Positions 1 through 12,872 of a DNA stretch of 64,000 nt are shown here, piece after piece. The notes beneath the pieces are model-generated. The model was not told the DNA's origin. It was given only the letters and a program-made list of their open reading frames with translations, and did no database searches. The translations under genes and the position numbers were made by a program. Each line of letters begins with the position of its first letter. Position 1 is the first letter of the stretch. The DNA comes from Verrucomicrobiia bacterium (GTDB taxonomy: Bacteria > Verrucomicrobiota > Verrucomicrobiia > Limisphaerales > UBA1319), in the NCBI GenBank assembly GCA_963664225.1, contig OY760937.1, positions 4,640,001 to 4,704,000 of the forward strand, in the 5' to 3' direction.

Positions 1-2
1 CG

Positions 3-320
3 GGCCTGCCTTACTGGAACGTGCGCGAGTCATATCCGAAATGGGATGAATGGGACGGAAAGATAGCTGAGTTGCAGCAACAACTTGATGCGCTCGGAAG
101 TGCGTTACATTTCATCTGCACAAACCATCTGGATACCGCGCAACAAATGATGACGACGCCTGAAGCCATTCAGAGGATTCCAGGCGAAGGCGAAGGCGCA
201 AGCGCCTGGCGAGTCTCGTGGAAGCACAAAATACCTGTCGGCGCTGCTGCAATTAAAGGCGGCCAACTCCTCATTATCGTCCACGATTCTGGCAAAGTGG
301 AAAAAGGGTTCAGCGAATGA
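3..320 (+). CDS. Partial hypothetical protein (5' end outside window); first visible member of the leader-repeat gene array
   Basis: Frame is open from position 3 (GLPYWNVRESY...). Its TGA overlaps the next ATG (ATGA 317-320). The C-terminal W-x-V...KGG...I.V..SG.V segment loosely resembles NTF2-fold immunity proteins. Confidence 0.7.
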   Translation, partial: GLPYWNVRESYPKWDEWDGKIAELQQQLDALGSALHFICTNHLDTAQQMMTTPEAIQRIPGEGEGASAWRVSWKHKIPVGAAAIKGGQLLIIVHDSGKVEKGFSE

Positions 321-1417
321 AAACAAACTTCCTCTGTCTCGCGCTCGTTTTGAGCGGTGGTGTGTTCGACTGTTCCCGCATCGTTCGGGCGGACGAAGCT
401 GTTGCCAAAACGGTTTCATCCAATACAGACCTGAGTTTTGAATCGCTTTTGAACGCGGCATTTCCGGGCAGGCAATTGCATGAGCTTAATTTGTATGGGC
501 CGGATGCCCGCCAGTTGTCGAGCGAGCGATGGAATCAACTAGCCGTTGCCGCTGCACGCGAGTTGTCGCTCCAGACAACCAATGGCTTGGTGATAACCAA
601 GGAAACAGTGGCTGGATTGCCTAACGGCTCATTGGCGACCGACTCACCGGAACAAGCCGCGCTTCGCCGATTGTGTTGGAGCAACGAGGAACAGATGACA
701 TTCCTTCGTGATGCGTCGAACAACCGCCTGTTCAATGACGCAGGGGTCATCGGGCCTCTGATCGCCATGCTCGATTATCCCGGGGAGAAAACCATCATCA
801 GACAGGAGGCCGCACAGATTCTGTGCCAGTTGACCCTGCGCGGTCGGCCGGAACAGACGCAGATATACCTCTACGTGGATGGGGAAAACAATCCAAAGCG
901 CCCCCAATATGCTGCGTGGTGGCGAGAGTGGTGGGCAAAAAACAAAAGCAAACATCCCGTTTTCGATTCAACGGTTGAGGCGTTGGTCTCGAACCGCATC
1001 GCAGGCATTGAATTACAGTTGGACAAGGATGTAGCGAAGAATTACTCGGAGTTGAACTATTTGAAGCCCAAATACATTCGATTTGACGTCCATCCAGTGA
1101 ATGTGATTGATGTCAGAGTGGATTCTTCCATCCTCTCAGCAATTGGTTCTCGCACTGCGCCTGATGGAACGTGGCGAGAAGCCGGGGAAGAGGATCACAT
1201 CTATCTTCGCATCACGGCCGGCTTTATAACACCGCCGTTTAGTCCGGTTTCAGACGACACTCCAAAACGTTGGCAATCATTAAAGAAAGAGGTTTTCCGG
1301 GAAACCATCCCGGATACGGATATTGTCATCACGGTTCAGGCAGCCTCGAAGGACGCCGAGTTTGTCCGACAAGTGCGGGCGTGTTTGGCAAAGCTGTCAC
1401 CCATGAAAGAGAATTAA
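317..1417 (+). CDS. Secreted hypothetical protein starting with the array leader (MKTNFLCLALVLSGG)
   Basis: 366-aa ORF with signal-peptide-like N-terminus (cleavage after VRA). Central helical region ends in WWREWWAKNK, HEAT-like. Confidence 0.85.
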   Translation: MKTNFLCLALVLSGGVFDCSRIVRADEAVAKTVSSNTDLSFESLLNAAFPGRQLHELNLYGPDARQLSSERWNQLAVAAARELSLQTTNGLVITKETVAGLPNGSLATDSPEQAALRRLCWSNEEQMTFLRDASNNRLFNDAGVIGPLIAMLDYPGEKTIIRQEAAQILCQLTLRGRPEQTQIYLYVDGENNPKRPQYAAWWREWWAKNKSKHPVFDSTVEALVSNRIAGIELQLDKDVAKNYSELNYLKPKYIRFDVHPVNVIDVRVDSSILSAIGSRTAPDGTWREAGEEDHIYLRITAGFITPPFSPVSDDTPKRWQSLKKEVFRETIPDTDIVITVQAASKDAEFVRQVRACLAKLSPMKEN

Positions 1418-1418
1418 C

Positions 1419-1703
1419 ATGAAGCTGAACCTTGTCCTCTGCCTCGCTCGAGGTTTGCTTTACACATATTGTCTAATTCTCCCGTACGGCCTGTTTGTGG
1501 CTTGGACGGGAATTAGAATGTGGAAAGATCCTCAGGCATCCTGGTGTGAGATTGTTCTTGGCGCTCTTGGTATATCTTTTTACACCTTCGCCACATGGTG
1601 GTATTTCAGCCTGCCCTTGGTCGCCGCCATAGCGTGGTGGTTGTATCTGCGGAGACAGGCCAAGGACTCACTCAACAAGCAATCGCCCCACGCTAAACCA
1701 TGA
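1419..1703 (+). CDS. Small membrane protein with partial array leader (MKLNLVLCLA)
   Basis: 94 aa with 2-3 hydrophobic segments. Starts 1 nt after the upstream TAA; its stop overlaps the next ATG. Confidence 0.8.
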   Translation: MKLNLVLCLARGLLYTYCLILPYGLFVAWTGIRMWKDPQASWCEIVLGALGISFYTFATWWYFSLPLVAAIAWWLYLRRQAKDSLNKQSPHAKP

Positions 1704-1738
1704 AACCCAAACTCATCCTCTGCCTCGCGCTCGTATGA
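1700..1738 (+). other. 12-codon mini-ORF consisting only of the leader repeat (MKPKLILCLALV*)
   Basis: ATG at 1700 overlaps the upstream TGA; its TGA (1736-1738) overlaps the ATG at 1735. Confidence 0.75.
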
Positions 1739-2160
1739 AACCATATTTTACTTCCATTGCTTTAGGCGTGGCAGCGTCCGCGATAGGCAGTGCCATCCTC
1801 GCGTCTGGTTCTGCCATAACCGCCGGGGCGACAAAGCATGTTTTGGAGGCATGGCCGTGGCTATTTTCTGTTTCTGTCATTCCCTGCGCGATTCTTCCAG
1901 CAATTGTCCTCCGGCTTGGTTCTAAAGTTTCATTTCGTGGCGGGCATTTTCTCTGCGTCTTCCTGCTCGCCTTTGCTGCCGTGGCCTTGGCTGGTTCTGC
2001 CGGCATTGTTATTGTGGAATCCGCGAGACGCGGCATCGCCAACGTAAATGTTTCCGGATATTTGGTTTGGTGCTGGGTCTATGCAATTGCTCTGCTGCCA
2101 GTCTCTTATCCTTTGGCGGCACTGGTTCTTTACCTTTCCGAAAAGAGACGCGAGCCATGA
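1735..2160 (+). CDS. Hypothetical membrane protein (about 4 TM)
   Basis: 141 aa with four hydrophobic stretches; ATGA overlaps at both ends. Confidence 0.8.
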   Translation: MKPYFTSIALGVAASAIGSAILASGSAITAGATKHVLEAWPWLFSVSVIPCAILPAIVLRLGSKVSFRGGHFLCVFLLAFAAVALAGSAGIVIVESARRGIANVNVSGYLVWCWVYAIALLPVSYPLAALVLYLSEKRREP

Positions 2161-2546
2161 AACCGAAAATTACCCTCTGCCTCGCGCTTGTTTTGAGCGG
2201 CGTTTTGCTCGGCTGCTCAACCAGCAACCGACATTCTGCCACGGCTTCTGTGTTGAACCACGGGCAGTCGGCTGTAGAGATAGTTCTCGCCGGCCACCAT
2301 TTTGCGCCTCCCACTACCGTCCGAGGGACAGGCGACGTCGTGTGGACAATTGCGGCAAGGCCACGCTCAAATTCCGCCGTCGAAATAGCGCAGGTTGAGA
2401 CGCACCCGGATGGTCGAATCACGGTCGAGATTTACAGTTGCCAGTATGTCGCGAGCGAGTGGGCCAGGCTTGGTCCCAAGTTTGCCGATCCCGGCCTGAA
2501 ACAGGAGGCAATGACGATGCTAGACCAGATTCTCAGAATACCATGA
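2157..2546 (+). CDS. Hypothetical lipoprotein with full array leader
   Basis: MKPKITLCLALVLSGVLLG-C lipobox; ATG 2157 overlaps the upstream TGA; 129 aa. Confidence 0.85.
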   Translation: MKPKITLCLALVLSGVLLGCSTSNRHSATASVLNHGQSAVEIVLAGHHFAPPTTVRGTGDVVWTIAARPRSNSAVEIAQVETHPDGRITVEIYSCQYVASEWARLGPKFADPGLKQEAMTMLDQILRIP

Positions 2547-3043
2547 AACCCAAACTGTCGCCTTACCACTTTCAACGCCGTCGGCCTGGTGCATTGGATC
2601 ATCTGCAGATTGCGGAAGCAACGGCGCAGGCGGTTGCCGAAATTCGCGCTCTGACCGGCTGGCTCTTGAGGGAAGGTTGCCCCGCCGTGGCGCTGTGGGG
2701 CTTTTCGCTAGGCGGACGATTGGCGGGATTAACAGCATGCCGCGATTCGCGGCTGGCCGCTATCGTTCTGACCAAACCCGGCGTGCGCAGCAATCTCTCG
2801 TTCCCAGAACTGGTCCTCTGGCGTGGCATTCGGGAAACGTTGCAGGGGCAGCGCGCGGAGTGGGCGGCGTTGAACCTGACCTCGTGGACTCTGACCTCGG
2901 CCCAGCCAGCCATCCCCAAGGAGAACATTTTGTTGATCGAAGCGGTCCATGACTTGTTGACGCCGAGAGAACCCCTCGTAAAGGGGTTCGCCCATAGAAC
3001 GGTGCGGTTATGGGCGCACATGGACGATGAAAAGGGTGGGTGA
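2543..3043 (+). pseudogene. Truncated alpha/beta hydrolase fused to the first 14 nt of the array leader
   Basis: Nucleophile elbow WGFSLGG and later AVHDL are present. At 166 aa it lacks the N-terminal strands, and the 3' end runs into two hairpins. Confidence 0.7.
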
Positions 3044-3054
3044 ATGAGGTCTTG

Positions 3055-3082
3055 AATGGACAATGGATAATTGACAATTGAC
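3055..3082 (+). repeat. Heptamer tandem repeat x4
   Basis: AATGGAC AATGGAT AATTGAC AATTGAC. Confidence 0.7.
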
Positions 3083-3096
3083 CAAGGTGGATAAGA

Positions 3097-3165
3097 ATGC
3101 CGCTCCGCTGGAGCTTGGGTTTTGTCGTTGTTCGATTTCTATAAACATGCCACTCCTACGGAGTT
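3097..3165 (+). repeat. REP-like palindrome doublet, same family as 17128-17230 and 17744-17846
   Basis: ATGCCGCTCCGCTGGAGCTT ... CTATAAACATGCCACTCCTACGGAGTT. Confidence 0.75.
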
Positions 3166-3549
3166 TCTGATTGCGGTCCACCGGGCGGAGGCATCCGGAA
3201 CATCCGCAGACGAGGACGCCCCCCGGCCATGACCGTTTCAAGCGATCCTCCGCAAGGAGTGGATTCTTGCGTTCAACCGGTTGACCACGGGTTGACTGCA
3301 GTTTGAATGGCCAGGATGAACAGGATGGGGAGTGGATAAGGAGGAGGCATCCGCAGATGCCCGACCATCGCCGCGCGGATTGGCACGGAGCGATTTCTGA
3401 TTGTCTGAAATCACGACTTCCTGGTTGGTGGTGAGTGCGGGATGCTCTCCACCGGCGAGCCGATGCAGTTCGCCGCCGACCTGGGGTTGCGGGTATGAGC
3501 CATGGGGGAAGTGTTCGATGCGAGCGGGAGATTGTTTGAGCAGACCCGG

Positions 3550-4803
3550 CTATTTTTCGCCCAGAGAATTTCGCGCCAGCCTTTCCAGGTCTGCGTCTGT
3601 CGCGTTGGGAAGAAAGCGCTTTCGATACAGTTCATCATGCAATATCTGCAAAATAGCGACCAGGGGCGCCGCGACCAAAACACCCAGAACACCGAAGGCA
3701 GCCACACACAAAAGCATGGAAAAGATGACTGCCGTGGAATGCAGCTTCATGCTGCGCGCGATGATCAGTGTGGAGATCACATTATTTTCCAGGAGCTGTA
3801 CGGCGAGATACGCGAGGAGAACCCAGAGGGGAGTCCATCCTCCCTTGGTCAGAGCGAACATGAGGGCGGGCAGGGCGCTGAGGATGGGGCCGATATAGGG
3901 AATGGCTTCGAGGACACCCGCGATGAGTCCCAAGACCAAGGCATCGGTAAAACCCAGGAGGGGCCACATCAGCACAAAAACCAAAAGACCGACGGCCAGC
4001 ATCGACAGAGCAGTGGCCAATGCCCAGCCCGGCACAAATTTTGCTATGCGTTGCATGATGGTCAACGTCTGAGCGTGGTGGCGCTCGGGGACCAGAGAAA
4101 AGATGGCCCCGAAAATCGGGCGGGGGTTCATGAGCGTATAAGTCACGCCAAAGAAGACGGTCCCCAGAACGAACAGAATCTGGGCCACATTGAACGCCAC
4201 GGCCGTAAAGCGGCCGGCCACTCCCTGTAGCGTCTGGCTTAAACTGGAACGAATCGAGCCGGTCGCCGTTGTGGTTTTGTCCGGAGTCGGCTCGCTGGCG
4301 GGCGCGACTTCCGGCTTGTCCGATTTCGTCGGGGAACTTGAAATTTCGGAAGTGACTTCGGCCTGAATTTTGTCCTCGGAATGAGCCGCCTGGCGCTCCA
4401 ATTTGATCAAGGGCTTTTGAATCCGCGCCCAGTAAACCGGAAACTCATCCGATAGCTTTGAGAACGAGGTTTTCAATGGCGCGAAAAAGGCCAGTCCCGT
4501 CAGGGCGAAAAGCGCTATCATTGAGGCCGCAAGGATCGCTGTGGTGATTTTTCTCCCGCCCGTCAAAGCTCGCATCCTGGAAATGATTGGATTGACGGCA
4601 AGTGAAATCAGGAGAATGAGCAGAAACGACAGCAGAATGGGTGACAACAGCGAGAACGTCTGGATGAAAGCAAAGGACGCCGCTCCCAGCAGCACATAAA
4701 ACGAGGTCGAATGCGGATTCGCTTCTTTTCTCAAGTGGCCGGGCATTTCATCTTTTTCCCAAGTTATTTTGCCGTCCGACGGTGCGGCTTGCGGTGTTCT
4801 CAT
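3550..4803 (-). CDS. AI-2E (PerM/UPF0118) family transporter
   Basis: IPYIGP and QLLENNVI...M.LH motifs, multi-TM. Start could instead be 4746. Confidence 0.9.
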   Translation of the reverse strand: MRTPQAAPSDGKITWEKDEMPGHLRKEANPHSTSFYVLLGAASFAFIQTFSLLSPILLSFLLILLISLAVNPIISRMRALTGGRKITTAILAASMIALFALTGLAFFAPLKTSFSKLSDEFPVYWARIQKPLIKLERQAAHSEDKIQAEVTSEISSSPTKSDKPEVAPASEPTPDKTTTATGSIRSSLSQTLQGVAGRFTAVAFNVAQILFVLGTVFFGVTYTLMNPRPIFGAIFSLVPERHHAQTLTIMQRIAKFVPGWALATALSMLAVGLLVFVLMWPLLGFTDALVLGLIAGVLEAIPYIGPILSALPALMFALTKGGWTPLWVLLAYLAVQLLENNVISTLIIARSMKLHSTAVIFSMLLCVAAFGVLGVLVAAPLVAILQILHDELYRKRFLPNATDADLERLARNSLGEK

Positions 4804-5972: not shown

Positions 5973-7490
5973 TCAAGGCTCCTCGGGAAGTTTGACGTCC
6001 AATTGGTTGTCAACATTCCCGGCGTGCGCGATTCGATCCGCGATTTCACCGATGAGACGTTTTTCCTCTGCGGTATTGACGGGTCCACGTAATGTAACTT
6101 TGCCTCCATTACTGATGATTTTTATGTTTTTGGCATTCACAGACATTCCTTTGTCGGCGATGATTTCTTTGCGGATCTGGGCCGTGGTAGCGATGTCGGC
6201 CACGCTATTGCCCTGGTCAAGCGGGGTTAGTGTCTTCGTTCCGCGATCACGAACGTTGCGACGGGTGTTGTCCGCGTCAGTCGAAGTTTCGTTGCGAATC
6301 TGAGCGTTGGTATTGATGTCGGTCGTGCCATTGCCCTGTTCAAGGGGCGTTAGTGTCTTGTCGTCGCGATCAGGAACATTGCGATCAGCGTTGTCCACGT
6401 CAGTCGAGGTGTCGTCGCGCATCTGAGCGTTGGTATTGATGTCGGTCGCGCCATTGCCCTGTTCAAGTGGCGTTAGTGTCTTGTCGTCGCGATCACGAAC
6501 ATTGCGATGGGCGCTGTCCACGTCGGTCGAGGTTTCGTTGCCGAAGTAGGGCTCGACTTTGTAGGCGCGGTAAACACCACCGGCATAGGCAGGCTGGCCA
6601 AGATCGGGCCATTCGTTGGCCTTGAAATGCGGCGAAGCGGACAGCATTTCTTTTGAGGTGTTGAGCTCAAGGCTGTCATGGCTCGCATTGTATTGAAAGG
6701 CCGTAGGCGGAACCGCGCTTAATTCGTCGCCCAAACCGATGAATCCACCCGATGAGATAATGACGGCAACGATGCGGCCTGCCGACAGATCCAGGACGAT
6801 GTTTTCCACCTTGCCGAGCTTGTCACCCTGAGGATTTTTCACCTGCGTGCCCATAAGCTTGCTTGCTTTTTGAACGTAACCCAGGCTTGCCCGCTCAGGT
6901 CTGGCTTGTTTGTCACGCGCATTGAGTTGCCCGGGTGATGTTGCATCGGCTCCGATTGTCCCATCCTTGTTCGTTGTCCAATCCCCATCATGAGCGGCCA
7001 TGAAGTAAGGATTTTCGCCATAATAGCCATAGACTTCGGCCAATCGATTGGATTGCGTCAACTCCTCCCACTTGGTGGTGTCAAACTTGGGCGCCGCGCC
7101 CAGTTTTTCCCTGGTGATGTCCAAATGAAGGACTTTGTTTGCGGAATCATAATGCAACGAGCGCGGAGGTACTGCGTTGAGCGTGCTGCCCATGCCGAGG
7201 AATCCGCCGGAGGAAAGAATCACCTGAACGATTCGCCCGGACTCCATATCCACGCCCAAGTCCTCCACCTTGCCGAGTTTTTCGTTCTGATTGTTTTGAA
7301 CCACCATACCGATGACGTCGCTGGATTTGATCGCAGCGATTAACCGTTCCGGGCGTTGGTTCTGGAGCATGCGCCTGCCAGGGCGGTCCGATTGGTCGGC
7401 CATGGAATCAGGCGCTTCTTGTGCCAGTGCTGCAATCGTCAAGACGGATGCCGCCGAGGCACTCACAATTAATCTAATATTTCGTTTCAT
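5973..7490 (-). CDS. Secreted protein with two PRC-barrel domains and a C-terminal BON domain
   Basis: Two KLGKVE...GGF.G.G units and C-terminal VTLRGPV...EK..I...A....NVDNQL. Signal peptide present; alternative starts 7496/7505. Confidence 0.9.
   Translation of the reverse strand: MKRNIRLIVSASAASVLTIAALAQEAPDSMADQSDRPGRRMLQNQRPERLIAAIKSSDVIGMVVQNNQNEKLGKVEDLGVDMESGRIVQVILSSGGFLGMGSTLNAVPPRSLHYDSANKVLHLDITREKLGAAPKFDTTKWEELTQSNRLAEVYGYYGENPYFMAAHDGDWTTNKDGTIGADATSPGQLNARDKQARPERASLGYVQKASKLMGTQVKNPQGDKLGKVENIVLDLSAGRIVAVIISSGGFIGLGDELSAVPPTAFQYNASHDSLELNTSKEMLSASPHFKANEWPDLGQPAYAGGVYRAYKVEPYFGNETSTDVDSAHRNVRDRDDKTLTPLEQGNGATDINTNAQMRDDTSTDVDNADRNVPDRDDKTLTPLEQGNGTTDINTNAQIRNETSTDADNTRRNVRDRGTKTLTPLDQGNSVADIATTAQIRKEIIADKGMSVNAKNIKIISNGGKVTLRGPVNTAEEKRLIGEIADRIAHAGNVDNQLDVKLPEEP
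6172..6541 (-). repeat. Intragenic 123-bp (41-aa) tandem repeat x3
   Basis: GTTAGTGTCTT recurs at 6226, 6349 and 6472; peptide unit TSTDxDN..RNVRDRDDKTLTPLEQGN...DI.T.AQIR. Confidence 0.9.
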
Positions 7491-7779: not shown

Positions 7780-9756
7780 TTATTTGCCTTCGGATTTCAG
7801 GGCCAGGGCCTTGGCGCGCTGGGCCAGGCCGGTGTTGGCGGTGACTTCAGCCGCTTTCTGGAGCGGGGCGGTCAGCTTGGAGGCCACATCCTTGTCCTTG
7901 TTGTCTTTGAGGATTTTCTCCGCAATGGAGACGGTGGCTGCGCTGGCTTCCTCTTTGACGGCGTCATCCCCCAGATAGGGAGCGATGGCGGTGACCGCAT
8001 CCGGGCTGGTGATGCCGCCCAGTGTGCCGAGCAGGAGTTTCTTCTCATCGGGCTGTTGCACGAGAGGAGCGATGTCCTGGCACATGGCCAGGCGTTTTGC
8101 GGCGGGCAATTCGTTATCGCCGGCCCAGGAGAGATAACCGCGCAGGCAGACCATTTTATCGGTGGGATTGGCGGCCGATTTCGCGAGGCCGAGCAGTTCG
8201 GGCAAGGCGTCGGTCGTTTTCCAGGAACTCAACTCCCGCAAGGCGGCGATGTGAATGTCCGCATTGGAATCATCGACGGCGGCGCGAACGGCTTTGAGGG
8301 CCTTTTGTCCGCCAATGCTGCCGAGCGTGCGCAGCAGGACGAGCTTCTGGGCGGTTTCAGCGGAACCCAGCGCGTCCACCAGTTTGGCGGCGCTTTCGTC
8401 TGTGTTTTGTTCGCGTCCGCAGATCGCGACGAGGGCCTGCTGTGCGGCCTCGGTATCCTGGGAATCTTTTCCGTTGTTCAGGAATCCGATCAATGCGGGC
8501 AATTCCTTCGTTCCGCCCAATTCTCCGATCCTCTTGACGGCGGCAACACGCACCTTGACATCGCTGTTGGTTCCAGCATTCAGGAGTTCGGGCAGGGCTT
8601 CCACCATGCGACGCCGACCGATGAGTTCGATGCCGTTGAGTTTGTTGGCGGCGTCGTTGCCGGCCAGCATCATCATGACCATTTCGTTGGCTTCCTTCAC
8701 CTTCATCGAGGCCAGGGCCTCCTGTGCGGCCTGGGCGACTTCAGGATTGCTGTCGCTCATCAGCCCGGTGAAATGGGGAACGCTGGAGGCATCTCCAATC
8801 TCCGCCAGGGCGCGGATGGCCGCCAGACGAATGGCGGGCTTTGGGTGGTTTGACCATCTCTTCAGATTATCGAGCGCAACGGCCGACTCGCCCCGTTTGC
8901 CAAGGGCTTGTATCACGAGCAACTTCTGGTCCTCCGAGTAATTACCGAAATCCGTCGCCAGCGCCGCGGTCACATCCATTCCCGGCATTTCCATGGCGGT
9001 CCGGATGGCGGCATCGACCAGAATGAAGTCGTTTCCATGGAGGGATTGCTTGAGCAGAATCATTGCCTCATTGGAAGGACGGTTCAGGATGGCGCCGCGC
9101 AATGCTCCCGCCCGCACCTGATGGGGCACTTTGGCGTTCTGCAATGTGTCGTAGATGGCCAGGGCTTCCTTGCGGAGGCCCTTGTTTGAGAGGCCTTCAG
9201 CGCAGCGCAGCATGCCTTCGGCGAAGACCAGATGACCGGGCGCCGGGGTGTTGGCCCAGGCGGCCTGGAGGGCTTTGGCCGCAGGCGCCGTGCCGATGCT
9301 TCCCAATGAGTTTGCCGCCGCCGGACCCACTCCGGGTTCGGTCGAAAACATCAAGGCGGTGAGTTGCGAAATGGCTTGGGAATTGTGCCGGACGCCCACG
9401 CTGGTGATGACACCGATGAGCGGTCTGCCATGCAATTGATTCAACGCCGACAGGAATGCGTTATCGACTTCCGCTCCCGGGATGGGCTCCAGGGCGTACC
9501 GGGCCATGTGGGCCATTTTTTCGTCACCCAACAGGGACGCCAGAACTGGAATGGCGTCCTTGTCGCCAATGATCCCCAACTGGCGGCAGGCATCCGCTTT
9601 GTCCTTTTGCGAGGCGTCGGATTTGAGAGTGGCGATCAGTTTATCCATCTTCTCCTTGTTCGAGGCGGATGCTTCCTGGCCAAAGGCAAAGGTTGGAGCC
9701 GCGCAGGCGAAGGTCAGTGCGAGGGCGAGGGCGGAAAATAATTTGGATTTTTTCAT
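7780..9756 (-). CDS. Exported HEAT/PBS-lyase repeat protein
   Basis: Signal peptide MKKSKLFSALALAL...; many VR.AA..ALG repeats. Confidence 0.9.
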   Translation of the reverse strand: MKKSKLFSALALALTFACAAPTFAFGQEASASNKEKMDKLIATLKSDASQKDKADACRQLGIIGDKDAIPVLASLLGDEKMAHMARYALEPIPGAEVDNAFLSALNQLHGRPLIGVITSVGVRHNSQAISQLTALMFSTEPGVGPAAANSLGSIGTAPAAKALQAAWANTPAPGHLVFAEGMLRCAEGLSNKGLRKEALAIYDTLQNAKVPHQVRAGALRGAILNRPSNEAMILLKQSLHGNDFILVDAAIRTAMEMPGMDVTAALATDFGNYSEDQKLLVIQALGKRGESAVALDNLKRWSNHPKPAIRLAAIRALAEIGDASSVPHFTGLMSDSNPEVAQAAQEALASMKVKEANEMVMMMLAGNDAANKLNGIELIGRRRMVEALPELLNAGTNSDVKVRVAAVKRIGELGGTKELPALIGFLNNGKDSQDTEAAQQALVAICGREQNTDESAAKLVDALGSAETAQKLVLLRTLGSIGGQKALKAVRAAVDDSNADIHIAALRELSSWKTTDALPELLGLAKSAANPTDKMVCLRGYLSWAGDNELPAAKRLAMCQDIAPLVQQPDEKKLLLGTLGGITSPDAVTAIAPYLGDDAVKEEASAATVSIAEKILKDNKDKDVASKLTAPLQKAAEVTANTGLAQRAKALALKSEGK

Positions 9757-9791
9757 GTTCAATTTTCTTTCAGGTAAATGTGTGTCCTCAA

Positions 9792-11117
9792 TTAAACGGT
9801 CCAGGGTTCGCGCATCGCACGGGAACGCAGACGATTGGCCTCCGCGTCGTTGATGAACGATTCGTTTTGGTAGTCGAAGTGCATGTCCCGTTTCAGCCAC
9901 ATACAGATGTTGGCTGCGTGAACGGTGGTCATCGAGCAGTGCATGACCAGCGGGTTGGCCACCGTGAGCCGGCGGGTTTTGATGCAGTTCAAGTAGTCGC
10001 GCATATGGCTCATGGGGCGCTGGGTGCGGGCGATGTAGTCGCCGACGATTTTTCGGAAATCGCCCAGCAGCGCCGGGGAGGAAACGTCCGGCTTGGTGTA
10101 GCCGTCCGCGACCGCCACCCAGCCTTCCGGCCCTTCAAATTTCATGCCGCAGGAGCCGGTCCACACGCCTTCGCGGTGCAGGACCATTTTGACGCCGTTG
10201 GGGAATTCGGTGACCATGCCGTCGCCGGTGGGGTTGTTCACGTAATGATACTCTGTGGCGGGCTTGTCAAGGGAATCGATGCCGGCCATCGCCTGGGCAA
10301 AGGTATGGGCGCCCCATTCGCCGATGCAACTGGTGTGGAAATCGTAATGGCCGCGCCATCCGCCGCTGGTGTAGGCGGAATTATAGGGACGCCATGGGCA
10401 GGCTCCCAGCCATTCATCCCAGTCCACCACATCCTTAGAGGGCAGGGGTTCCTCGGGGAGCCAGTCATGATTCATTTCTGCGGCGTCCCAGGGGGCAATG
10501 TGGGCGCGGGCGGTGTGGATTTTTCCGAGACGGCCGCTCTTGGCCAGTTCAATGGCAAATACGAAATTCGCTTCGCTGAGACGTTGCGTGCCGGTTTGAT
10601 AGACGCGGCCATAGCGTTTGGCCGTTTCAACCACCGCCTGACCCTCGGCAATGGTCATGCTTGAGGGTTTTTCGCAATAGACATCCTTGCCCGCGCGCAT
10701 CGCCATCGTGGCGGCCAGGGCGTGCCAGCGGTCGCCGGTGGCGATCAGCAGCGCGTCGATGTCGGTCCGCTCGGCCAGAAATTCACGCATGTTGCCGTAG
10801 AGTGCGCAGTCGGTATTTCCATAGCGGGCGTCCACGATTTTTTTCACCGCTTCCCGGCGGCTCTTTTGGGCATCGCACACCGCCACGAACTGCACATCGG
10901 CTTCGGGCAGCATCCAACCCAGGTCGCTGGTGCCGCGCGGGCCGATTCCCAGGCCGCCCATGACGATGCGTTCACTGGGCGGAACCGCGCCATTGCGTCC
11001 CAGCACGGAGGCGGGGATGAAGAGCGGTGCGGTCAGGGCTCCCGCCACCAGCGCGGTGTGTTTGAGGAAGTGTCGTCGTGTCAGGGCTTTCGAGTCGGAA
11101 GAGACGGCAGGCGACAT
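9792..11117 (-). CDS. Tat-exported Gfo/Idh/MocA family oxidoreductase
   Basis: TRRHFLK Tat motif, G.GIG.RG, AGKDVYCEKP, WGAH. Confidence 0.92.
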   Translation of the reverse strand: MSPAVSSDSKALTRRHFLKHTALVAGALTAPLFIPASVLGRNGAVPPSERIVMGGLGIGPRGTSDLGWMLPEADVQFVAVCDAQKSRREAVKKIVDARYGNTDCALYGNMREFLAERTDIDALLIATGDRWHALAATMAMRAGKDVYCEKPSSMTIAEGQAVVETAKRYGRVYQTGTQRLSEANFVFAIELAKSGRLGKIHTARAHIAPWDAAEMNHDWLPEEPLPSKDVVDWDEWLGACPWRPYNSAYTSGGWRGHYDFHTSCIGEWGAHTFAQAMAGIDSLDKPATEYHYVNNPTGDGMVTEFPNGVKMVLHREGVWTGSCGMKFEGPEGWVAVADGYTKPDVSSPALLGDFRKIVGDYIARTQRPMSHMRDYLNCIKTRRLTVANPLVMHCSMTTVHAANICMWLKRDMHFDYQNESFINDAEANRLRSRAMREPWTV

Positions 11118-12452: not shown

Positions 12453-12872
12453 ATGCGACGGTTCTCACAACGAAATTCACTGGTCACGCTGAGTGATATC
12501 AATATCACTCCGCTGCTGGACCTCGCATTCGTGCTGCTCATCATTTTCATCATCACCACGCCCCTCCTGACCCAAAGCATGGATGTCAAGCTGCCCGGCG
12601 GGGGTCGGGTCGATAAGATGCAGATCGAACCCAAGGACGTGAGAACCATCGAAGTGGGCCTGGACGGTCAGTACCGTTATGACCGCCGACCGATGGTTCT
12701 GGCCCAAATTGAGGCTGAATTGGTCCGGGCCTTTCAGGCGAATCCAAATCTCGTCGTTTATATTCGGGCGGACGAAAACGGGGCTTATCGGAATGTGGCC
12801 GCGGTGTTGGATTGTTGCCAGCGGCACGACATCACCCGTGTTTCGTTGCGGACAGAGCAGAAAAAGCGTTGA
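12453..12872 (+). CDS. tolR: TolR/ExbD
   Basis: INITPLLDLAFVLLIIF and IRAD motifs. Confidence 0.9.
   Translation: MRRFSQRNSLVTLSDINITPLLDLAFVLLIIFIITTPLLTQSMDVKLPGGGRVDKMQIEPKDVRTIEVGLDGQYRYDRRPMVLAQIEAELVRAFQANPNLVVYIRADENGAYRNVAAVLDCCQRHDITRVSLRTEQKKR

Follow-up and report, generated by a model that had tools for sequence, protein, structure and literature searches.

A stretch of 64,000 nucleotides from the one-contig, 5.78-Mb genome G000 of a Verrucomicrobiia bacterium (G000:C1:4640001–4704000, hereafter the window) opens with an array of closely packed genes that have unrelated bodies and start with variants of one translated DNA repeat, here called the leader. The leader appears, on balance, to be a homology handle for general recombination that at the same time supplies the start codon, translational coupling and export signal of the gene it heads. 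Written with the same codons, it heads at least 101 protein families and recurs in about 35 metagenome-assembled genomes (MAGs) of Verrucomicrobiota and on 79 metagenome contigs, again in tightly packed arrays, and the best explanation of all these loci is that Verrucomicrobiota of soil and peat carry a family of shared-leader cassette arrays. The array of the window is a small, partly decayed member of this family, in a genome whose close relatives have no array. A full-text literature search found no account of unrelated genes in Verrucomicrobia that share a leader conserved as DNA.

In G000, seven co-directional leader copies of 14–60 nt lie at a single locus (G000 4638671–4642556), five of them inside the window and two to its left; they open with MKPKLILCLALVLSG, and each gene starts with a variant of ATGAAACCCAAACTCATCCTCTGCCTCGCGCTCGTTTTGAGCGG. 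The initial annotation, made from the letters of the window and its open reading frames (ORFs), had reported the repeat at five junctions (window positions 317, 1419, 1700, 2157 and 2543), and both the positions and their context were verified: the ATG codons at 317, 1700, 2157 and 2543 overlap the preceding TGA as ATGA, that at 1419 stands 1 nt after the preceding TAA, and the sequence and its ORFs leave little or no spacer between consecutive genes of the + strand. The array also runs off the left edge of the window, as had been supposed, and extends 1.33 kb further with copies at positions 12671 and 13103 of locus L001 (L001 position = window position + 14000). A 15-nt core, CCTCTGCCTCGCGCT, occurs four times in the window with up to two mismatches (0.20 expected; 0 of 100 shuffles reached four). 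Searched through the genome with up to one mismatch, the core gives seven matches, of which five are on the + strand between G000 4638688 and 4642174 and two are unrelated, and the peptide pattern MK.{2,6}LCLA gives six, five of them at the array locus.

Conservation of the leader at the DNA level

The first 45–60 nt of a cassette are near-invariant and encode the n- and h-regions of a signal peptide predicted to be of the Sec/lipoprotein type, in which an MKPK n-region is followed by an LILCLALVL h-region and SGGLFGC, the lipobox often reading GLFGC. The repeat thus provides, in agreement with the initial annotation, the ATG, the ATGA overlap and the predicted export signal. A set of leaders free of ascertainment by DNA was obtained by a peptide-pattern scan of metagenome contigs, in which 598 stretches were collected, 335 were confirmed and 79 loci were kept. 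Among its 170 distinct instances, the canonical codons account for 92–99% at codons 5–14 (CTC at Leu5, Leu7, Leu9 and Leu11, 92–98%; GCG at Ala10, 98%; GTT at Val12, 99%; TTG at Leu13, 94%; AGC at Ser14, 96%), and their share falls to 71–89% at codons 15–20. Ser21 and Thr22, just behind the repeat, are conserved with mixed codons, the top codon reaching 38% and 35%, respectively; therefore, conservation of the DNA has its edge at about nt 60, and conservation of the protein continues past it. The 5′ edge of the repeat is sharp, at about −5.

In the cassette bodies, the same codons make up 15–33% of their amino acid. At three positions outside the search pattern of the first set of leaders, GTT at Val12, TTG at Leu13 and AGC at Ser14 reach 91, 92 and 89% in the leader, as against 31, 30 and 22% of the respective amino acid in the bodies. 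Within body families, identical residues are encoded by identical codons in 450/539 cases in the leader versus 3305/5537 in the body. The exact commonest 60-mer was found 19 times in the collected loci, and the housekeeping genes of leader-bearing genomes are only ~70–77% identical. The leader is accordingly conserved as DNA and in arrays, as the initial annotation supposed, rather than at the protein level alone and on scattered genes.

Recombination inside the leader

Duplicated and exchanged cassettes bear out the proposal that the repeat is a recombination junction, their identity tracts starting and stopping inside it. The metagenome arrays L110 and L111 match at 99.17% over 4326 nt, with one 356-nt cassette as the difference between them; the single leader of L110 is chimeric, matching the left leader of L111 to about nt 41 and the right leader from about nt 17, which places the switch point somewhere in nt ~17–42. 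Two arrays of one MAG share a 249-aa cassette, which is 99–100% identical from about nt 32 of its leader to about nt 29 of the next one, with one more difference at leader nt 60 and with unrelated flanks. Five more orthologous cassette pairs have their homology confined to the span from one leader to the next. Across loci, cassette order is almost random, the downstream family being shared in 10 of the 192 junction pairs that share the upstream family; it was likewise found to differ, not to be fixed, between relatives. When the leaders of 147 junctions were divided into thirds, the 5′ third tracked the upstream cassette (0.865 versus 0.835) and the 3′ third tracked the downstream body (0.728 versus 0.546), and the core was equally conserved in all comparisons (0.91–0.94).

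These exchanges might instead be made by a dedicated site-specific recombinase that is encoded elsewhere and moves cassettes as circles, with an att site inside the coding region, which we consider unlikely. It would suit the integron-like layout, in which cassettes without promoters all point the same way, content changes while the locus stays fixed and partial sites stand at the array end, as well as the sharp 5′ edge of the repeat and the overlap of all mapped crossover windows near leader nt 30. A tyrosine recombinase adjoins an array in two cases, beside a terminal stub (L041:2821–3951) and upstream of the first cassette (L092:1144–2109). However, these two are all that was found among 184 ORFs neighbouring the 46 other loci (1/112 and 1/72), the remaining 182 not being recombinases, and the domain pair of the L092 protein is that of housekeeping XerC/D. 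The dedicated recombinase or promoter that, according to the initial annotation, might lie upstream is not supported by the 12.6 kb to the left of the window array, and no recombinase was found among the ORFs scanned in these 12.6 kb and in ~7 kb to its right. The break points also vary: the left tract of the duplication in the one MAG starts after nt 31 and its right tract stops before nt 30, the switch between L110 and L111 falls within nt 17–42, and two truncated leaders (stubs) of the window break at nt 14 and nt 35. As to a structured site, RNAalifold gave 0 pairs and no consensus structure for 98 aligned leaders, and pairs of the best single-sequence hairpin covary no more than in shuffles (239/500). 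An attC-like or riboregulatory hairpin was dropped on these grounds, despite the slightly better folding of the canonical leader than of its shuffles (z, −2.8).

The initial annotation had pictured an integron-like capture platform without attC sites. Gain, loss and shuffling of cassettes at the repeat stand, and site-specific capture is not supported: crossover positions vary, no attC-like structure is conserved and an adjacent recombinase is lacking. Homologous recombination therefore fits better. We see an outside chance that the leader is the true recombination site of an integrase-remote gene-capture system dedicated to the secretome, in which an unlinked recombinase or a specialised recombination branch would cut the signal-peptide core, free single-cassette circles and re-insert them in frame. 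A gene captured in this way would at once be expressed, translationally coupled and exported.

Architecture of the arrays

The 79 metagenome loci contain 274 leaders, co-directional in all but one locus. From the stop codon of one gene to the ATG of the next, the distance is −4 in 78/177 cases and 0–10 nt in 48/177. A leader ORF of ≤60 aa closes 12 of the 30 arrays with a resolved 3′ end, compared with 20 of 177 internal leaders, and the stubs at array ends often look untranslated. The 49 stubs keep 35–45 of the 45 canonical bases, and several internal ones have a small membrane-protein gene with its own start within 50–100 nt, as in the window, a pairing of leader stub and small membrane-protein gene that recurs in the metagenome arrays. 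Separately, the metagenome protein P0017 contains the leader twice in frame in one ORF (MKPKLILCLALVLSG-KPKLILCLALVLSGGLFGC...), that is, a leader-to-leader junction in a single gene.

Recurrent neighbours of the arrays are uvrB/valS and genes for a GFO/IDH/MocA oxidoreductase, a histidine kinase and an aldose epimerase. Three genomes in which uvrB is 93–96% identical have different cassettes downstream of it. In a fourth (L054:1759–3387), a mosaic uvrB lies beside a five-cassette array, with its last ~800 nt 95% identical to uvrB of three related genomes and the rest 74–83%. Copies of the 3′ ends of flanking genes (~100–200 nt; uvrB and purA) are found beside cassettes or fused to terminal stubs (L032:2768–2865 versus 3468–3565; L042:2712–2815, 3335–3448 and 6455–6557; L111:6896–7109 versus 9778–10066), and these duplicated tails may be read as traces of single-crossover insertions.

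Could the leader nucleotides be a functional RNA or DNA signal, with recombination as a by-product? Candidates are a site of translation initiation or re-initiation on leaderless mRNAs or on genes lacking a Shine–Dalgarno sequence, a target for a small RNA or a regulator, and codon-level pacing of export. Such a signal would account for a repeat that always starts at the ATG and in frame, and its first 15 nt, rich in A and C, go well with coupled initiation, as do the ATGA overlaps; the leader is also kept on single, non-arrayed cassettes, and its folding score points the same way. In several first cassettes, the ATG is preceded at 5–6 nt by GTTACAAT, which may be a −10 box and, if so, would yield a leaderless mRNA. 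Yet stubs that stop after 7–37 codons retain their canonical bases, neither covariation nor a consensus structure was detected, no antisense copy was found beyond the arrays on both strands of six genomes, and the one-cassette insertions and deletions and the mosaic linkage of the leader thirds are left unexplained. We thus judge a signal of this kind improbable as the reason for the conservation. The sequence before first cassettes forms a conserved junction element (L046:4483–4730, L042:4930–5179, L054:6266–6370 and L032:4490–4650), in which a stub ending in ...LSGEMNELV* is followed by ~25 nt with GTTACAAT and, 5–6 nt later, by the next ATG. This element may be an array promoter giving leaderless mRNA.

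Distribution of the leader

A DNA-pattern scan of one genome per species yielded 48 loci with 117 distinct leader ORFs, labelled nearly throughout as Verrucomicrobia, Verrucomicrobiia or Limisphaerales MAGs, with a few contigs in otherwise labelled bins. One match in Pseudomonas has no ATG context and looks like chance. A genome carries 2–11 copies in one to three arrays, and none is scattered. At E ≤ 0.001, a leader profile retrieved 371 cluster representatives among 1.84 billion. Among 41 relatives of the window genome, G013, from another family, has three DNA matches to the leader (up to 88% over 65 nt) at a locus of four co-directional genes with leader-like starts and other bodies. A strict codon-free DNA pattern gave four matches in three of the 401 genomes of the order and none in G000, the copies of which deviate from it, so this pattern is too strict for a census.

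That the leader is the end of a small non-autonomous element, resembling a miniature inverted-repeat transposable element, which lands before genes, is very improbable. Stubs preceding genes with their own start and the patchy distribution among genomes would agree with it, but the copies are co-directional and clustered as described, no terminal inverted repeats are evident by eye in the alignment of 98 leaders from −12 to +72, and the leader was not found in plasmid collections, phage collections or viral contigs.

Bodies behind the leader

Each cassette is a whole gene for what is predicted to be an exported, lipid-anchored or membrane protein. Pfam matches were obtained for 15 of 82 cassette proteins and span different folds (serpin, alpha-L-fucosidase, GH16, M14 carboxypeptidase, pectate lyase, GxGYxYP, BspA-type LRR, TPR, HEAT, beta-propeller and F5/8 type C), with no toxin or immunity family among them; the other 67 have no family. 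Single-linkage BLASTP clustering, which may over-merge, sorts the 330 leader proteins with a length of 80 aa or more into 101 families, the largest of which has 19 members; 37 are singletons. The bodies are thus unrelated, as first described: neither BLASTP nor Pfam makes the mature proteins paralogous. An ordinary paralogous family of tandem duplicates, in which the bodies diverged past recognition and selection kept the signal peptide, is hardly credible, for although some body families recur and some homologues show leader peptide and body drifting together, the unrelated folds with Pfam families of their own already contradict it, and the leader conserves codons (see the counts within body families above), not residues alone.

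Genes of the window array

The genes below are all on the + strand, and leader identities are scored against the commonest 60-mer. The leftmost leader (L001 12671; 43/45 identical) heads a 35-aa stub that is followed by a 98-aa protein with three hydrophobic segments. The next (L001 13103, 897 nt to the left of the window; 35/45 identical) opens the gene of a 405-aa cassette protein (L001 13103–14320), the 3′ part of which is the ORF at window positions 3..320 and has no Pfam family; homologues of this protein have leader-like N-termini too. The 366-aa cassette gene (317..1417; L001 14317) has its leader at 317–373, which is 19/45 identical without gaps, the match being restored by gapped alignment with 3 nt of gaps (1+2). 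Its product has 15 homologues, most of them leader-bearing, and shares no BLASTP similarity with the 405-aa protein; the AF2 model (pLDDT, 78) suggests a helical domain and a beta domain, with no PDB match at E ≤ 0.001 and weak armadillo-like rows only.

The third gene in the window encodes a small hydrophobic, probable membrane protein of 94 aa (1419..1703; L001 15419) with one hydropathy segment at residues 3–21, and its first ~30 nt are a degenerate leader (30/45 identical). An N-terminal sequence judged by eye to resemble this protein occurs in L040, with its own start behind a leader stub. At 1700..1738 (L001 15700), a stub of 12 codons and a stop codon, the first 35 nt of which are canonical leader, is followed by the gene of a 141-aa protein with four predicted hydrophobic segments (1735..2160; L001 15735), whose own ATG overlaps the stop codon of the stub. 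The predicted 129-aa lipoprotein (2157..2546; L001 16157) has a leader at 2157–2216, identical at 51/60 positions (40/45 on the scale used for the other copies), and the lipobox LLGC. The array closes with a leader remnant of 14 nt (2543–2556) fused in frame to a 5′-truncated alpha/beta-hydrolase gene (2543..3043; L001 16543), the full-length homologue of which in the relative G031 has ~128 extra N-terminal residues. This last fragment has weak Abhydrolase matches in Pfam; besides these, no gathering-level Pfam family was found for the array genes, and NCBIfam likewise gave nothing.

The island as a whole is rich in small predicted hydrophobic or membrane genes with no family (L001 12028–12303 and 12794–13090; window 1419–1703 and 1735–2160). 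A 706-aa secreted HEAT-repeat protein is encoded on the − strand at window positions 7780–9900, 5 kb from the array, and C-terminal HEAT domains are often fused to homologues of the 366-aa and 405-aa cassette proteins.

Surroundings of the window array

A dispersed repeat of ~120 nt, located by local alignment, has copies on both sides of the array, at 3203..3325 of the window (+ strand) and, as a direct copy, at L001 11854–11974, so that the island is bracketed by them. The bracketing repeat spans 3060–3325 with a palindromic core, CAACCGGTTG, its direct copies being ~80% alike, and related pieces are numerous in G000, among them a tandem series near G000 2566421–2568412. The 12.6 kb to the left of the array encode a rhamnosidase-like protein, an arginine decarboxylase, UbiA and a radical-SAM enzyme. 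The array sits at a synteny break relative to the same-genus genome G001, and no empty site could be defined in comparison with G001, because G001 lacks an array and synteny with it stops immediately behind the radical-SAM gene. The GC content of the array is slightly lower than that of its flanks (0.49–0.57 versus 0.56–0.60), which we do not take as evidence of transfer. Nine public sequencing runs, with no RNA run listed among them, contain the stretch or part of it, five of them with at least half of the sampled words. In runs X1 and X3, the array is unchanged on an 8336-nt contig; X4 and X5 gave fragments only, some of which end 4 nt before a leader ATG (L001 13099) and continue into unlike sequence.

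Comparison with known gene-cassette systems

Integrons and clusters of attC sites lacking integron-integrases have in common with the leader arrays that their cassettes are repeat-bounded, co-directional, packed, mostly promoterless and unrelated, with variable content at a fixed site. Integrons have an adjacent intI with attI, whereas no intI was found next to the arrays here (46 other loci and the window); the attC site is an imperfect hairpin at the 3′ end of the cassette, whereas the repeat here is translated and lies at the 5′ end in the coding region; and the crossover positions vary in the leader arrays. The best reading is that the leader arrays work like an integron but are not a member of the integron family.

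In the Borrelia erp genes, with their 'upstream homology box', and in the Mycoplasma vsp/vlp/vsa genes, the 5′ end, including the lipoprotein signal peptide, is the part best conserved in DNA and serves recombination between members. These families have paralogous bodies and function in antigenic or phase variation of host-associated bacteria, and Mycoplasma uses a site-specific recombinase. The leader arrays share the conservation of the 5′ signal-peptide region as DNA, but their bodies are unrelated and their hosts are free-living soil and peat bacteria. The orphan toxin/immunity arrays of CDI and Rhs systems likewise have a short conserved coding segment before each cassette as the handle for module swapping by general recombination, but it attaches a variable C-terminal tip to a single large expressed gene. 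In the leader arrays, by contrast, cassettes are complete genes with a signal peptide as their handle.

The rAID-1 clusters of Bacteroidales comprise up to 31 co-directional genes with repetitive junctions, described by their authors as reminiscent of integrons, and have a conserved XerD-family recombinase, intergenic repeats and a cargo of immunity genes (bioRxiv 10.1101/471110). The leader arrays differ in having no conserved recombinase at the array head and an intragenic repeat. As far as Pfam shows (15 of 82 cassette proteins with a family, none of them an immunity family), their cargo also appears to differ, being made up of enzymes, repeat proteins, small lipoproteins and membrane proteins.

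Proposed mechanism and significance

Because every cassette opens with a leader and the next cassette follows within a few bases, direct repeats stand on both sides of it. By recombining with one another, leaders would allow cassettes to be deleted, duplicated, excised and re-inserted, both inside one array and from one array to another, and the same exchange could take place after transfer of DNA between genomes, by which cassettes are probably imported. All of this would leave the reading frame, start codon, stop/start coupling and export signal intact, and the constancy of the codons would arise from gene conversion, the canonical copies being those that are repeatedly copied and converted. 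In length, the leader repeats are close to the minimum that RecA-type recombination uses efficiently. General homologous recombination, circular intermediates, inter-genome transfer and drive-like maintenance of the leader are all steps that we infer.

Several points weigh against recombination at the leader as a homology handle. A repeat of 45–60 nt is a short recombination substrate, and the homogeneity of the leader across families of an order would need gene flow, at which the mosaic uvrB beside one array and the patchy distribution (3/401 genomes with the strict codon-free pattern) hint. All mapped crossover windows include leader nt ~30, which leaves room for a fixed cut site. Some homologues of the 366-aa and 405-aa proteins have a leader peptide that drifts along with their body. 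Not every leader is therefore frozen, and the low divergence of the canonical set is in part a product of selection, since choosing canonical peptides enriches young or recently converted copies. The possible over-merging of the body families belongs here as well. Finally, the contigs of four sequencing runs, from which rare forms are dropped, contained no recombination intermediate or joint, and such data are silent on rare rearrangements.

With a short repeat, small arrays and at least one complete carrier genome (G000) present in several sequencing runs, the proposal is directly testable. If the leader is indeed a homology handle, a signal-peptide coding sequence would double as a gene-cassette junction, which would explain its codon-for-codon conservation across genomes with such divergent housekeeping genes. 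Cells would then swap ready-to-export genes without an integrase while keeping frame, start and targeting, and the swapped genes would include glycosidases, peptidases, a serpin, repeat proteins and many small lipoproteins with no known role. In this way, the abundant but poorly known Verrucomicrobiota of soil and peat would have a simple and general means of keeping their surface proteome and secretome flexible.

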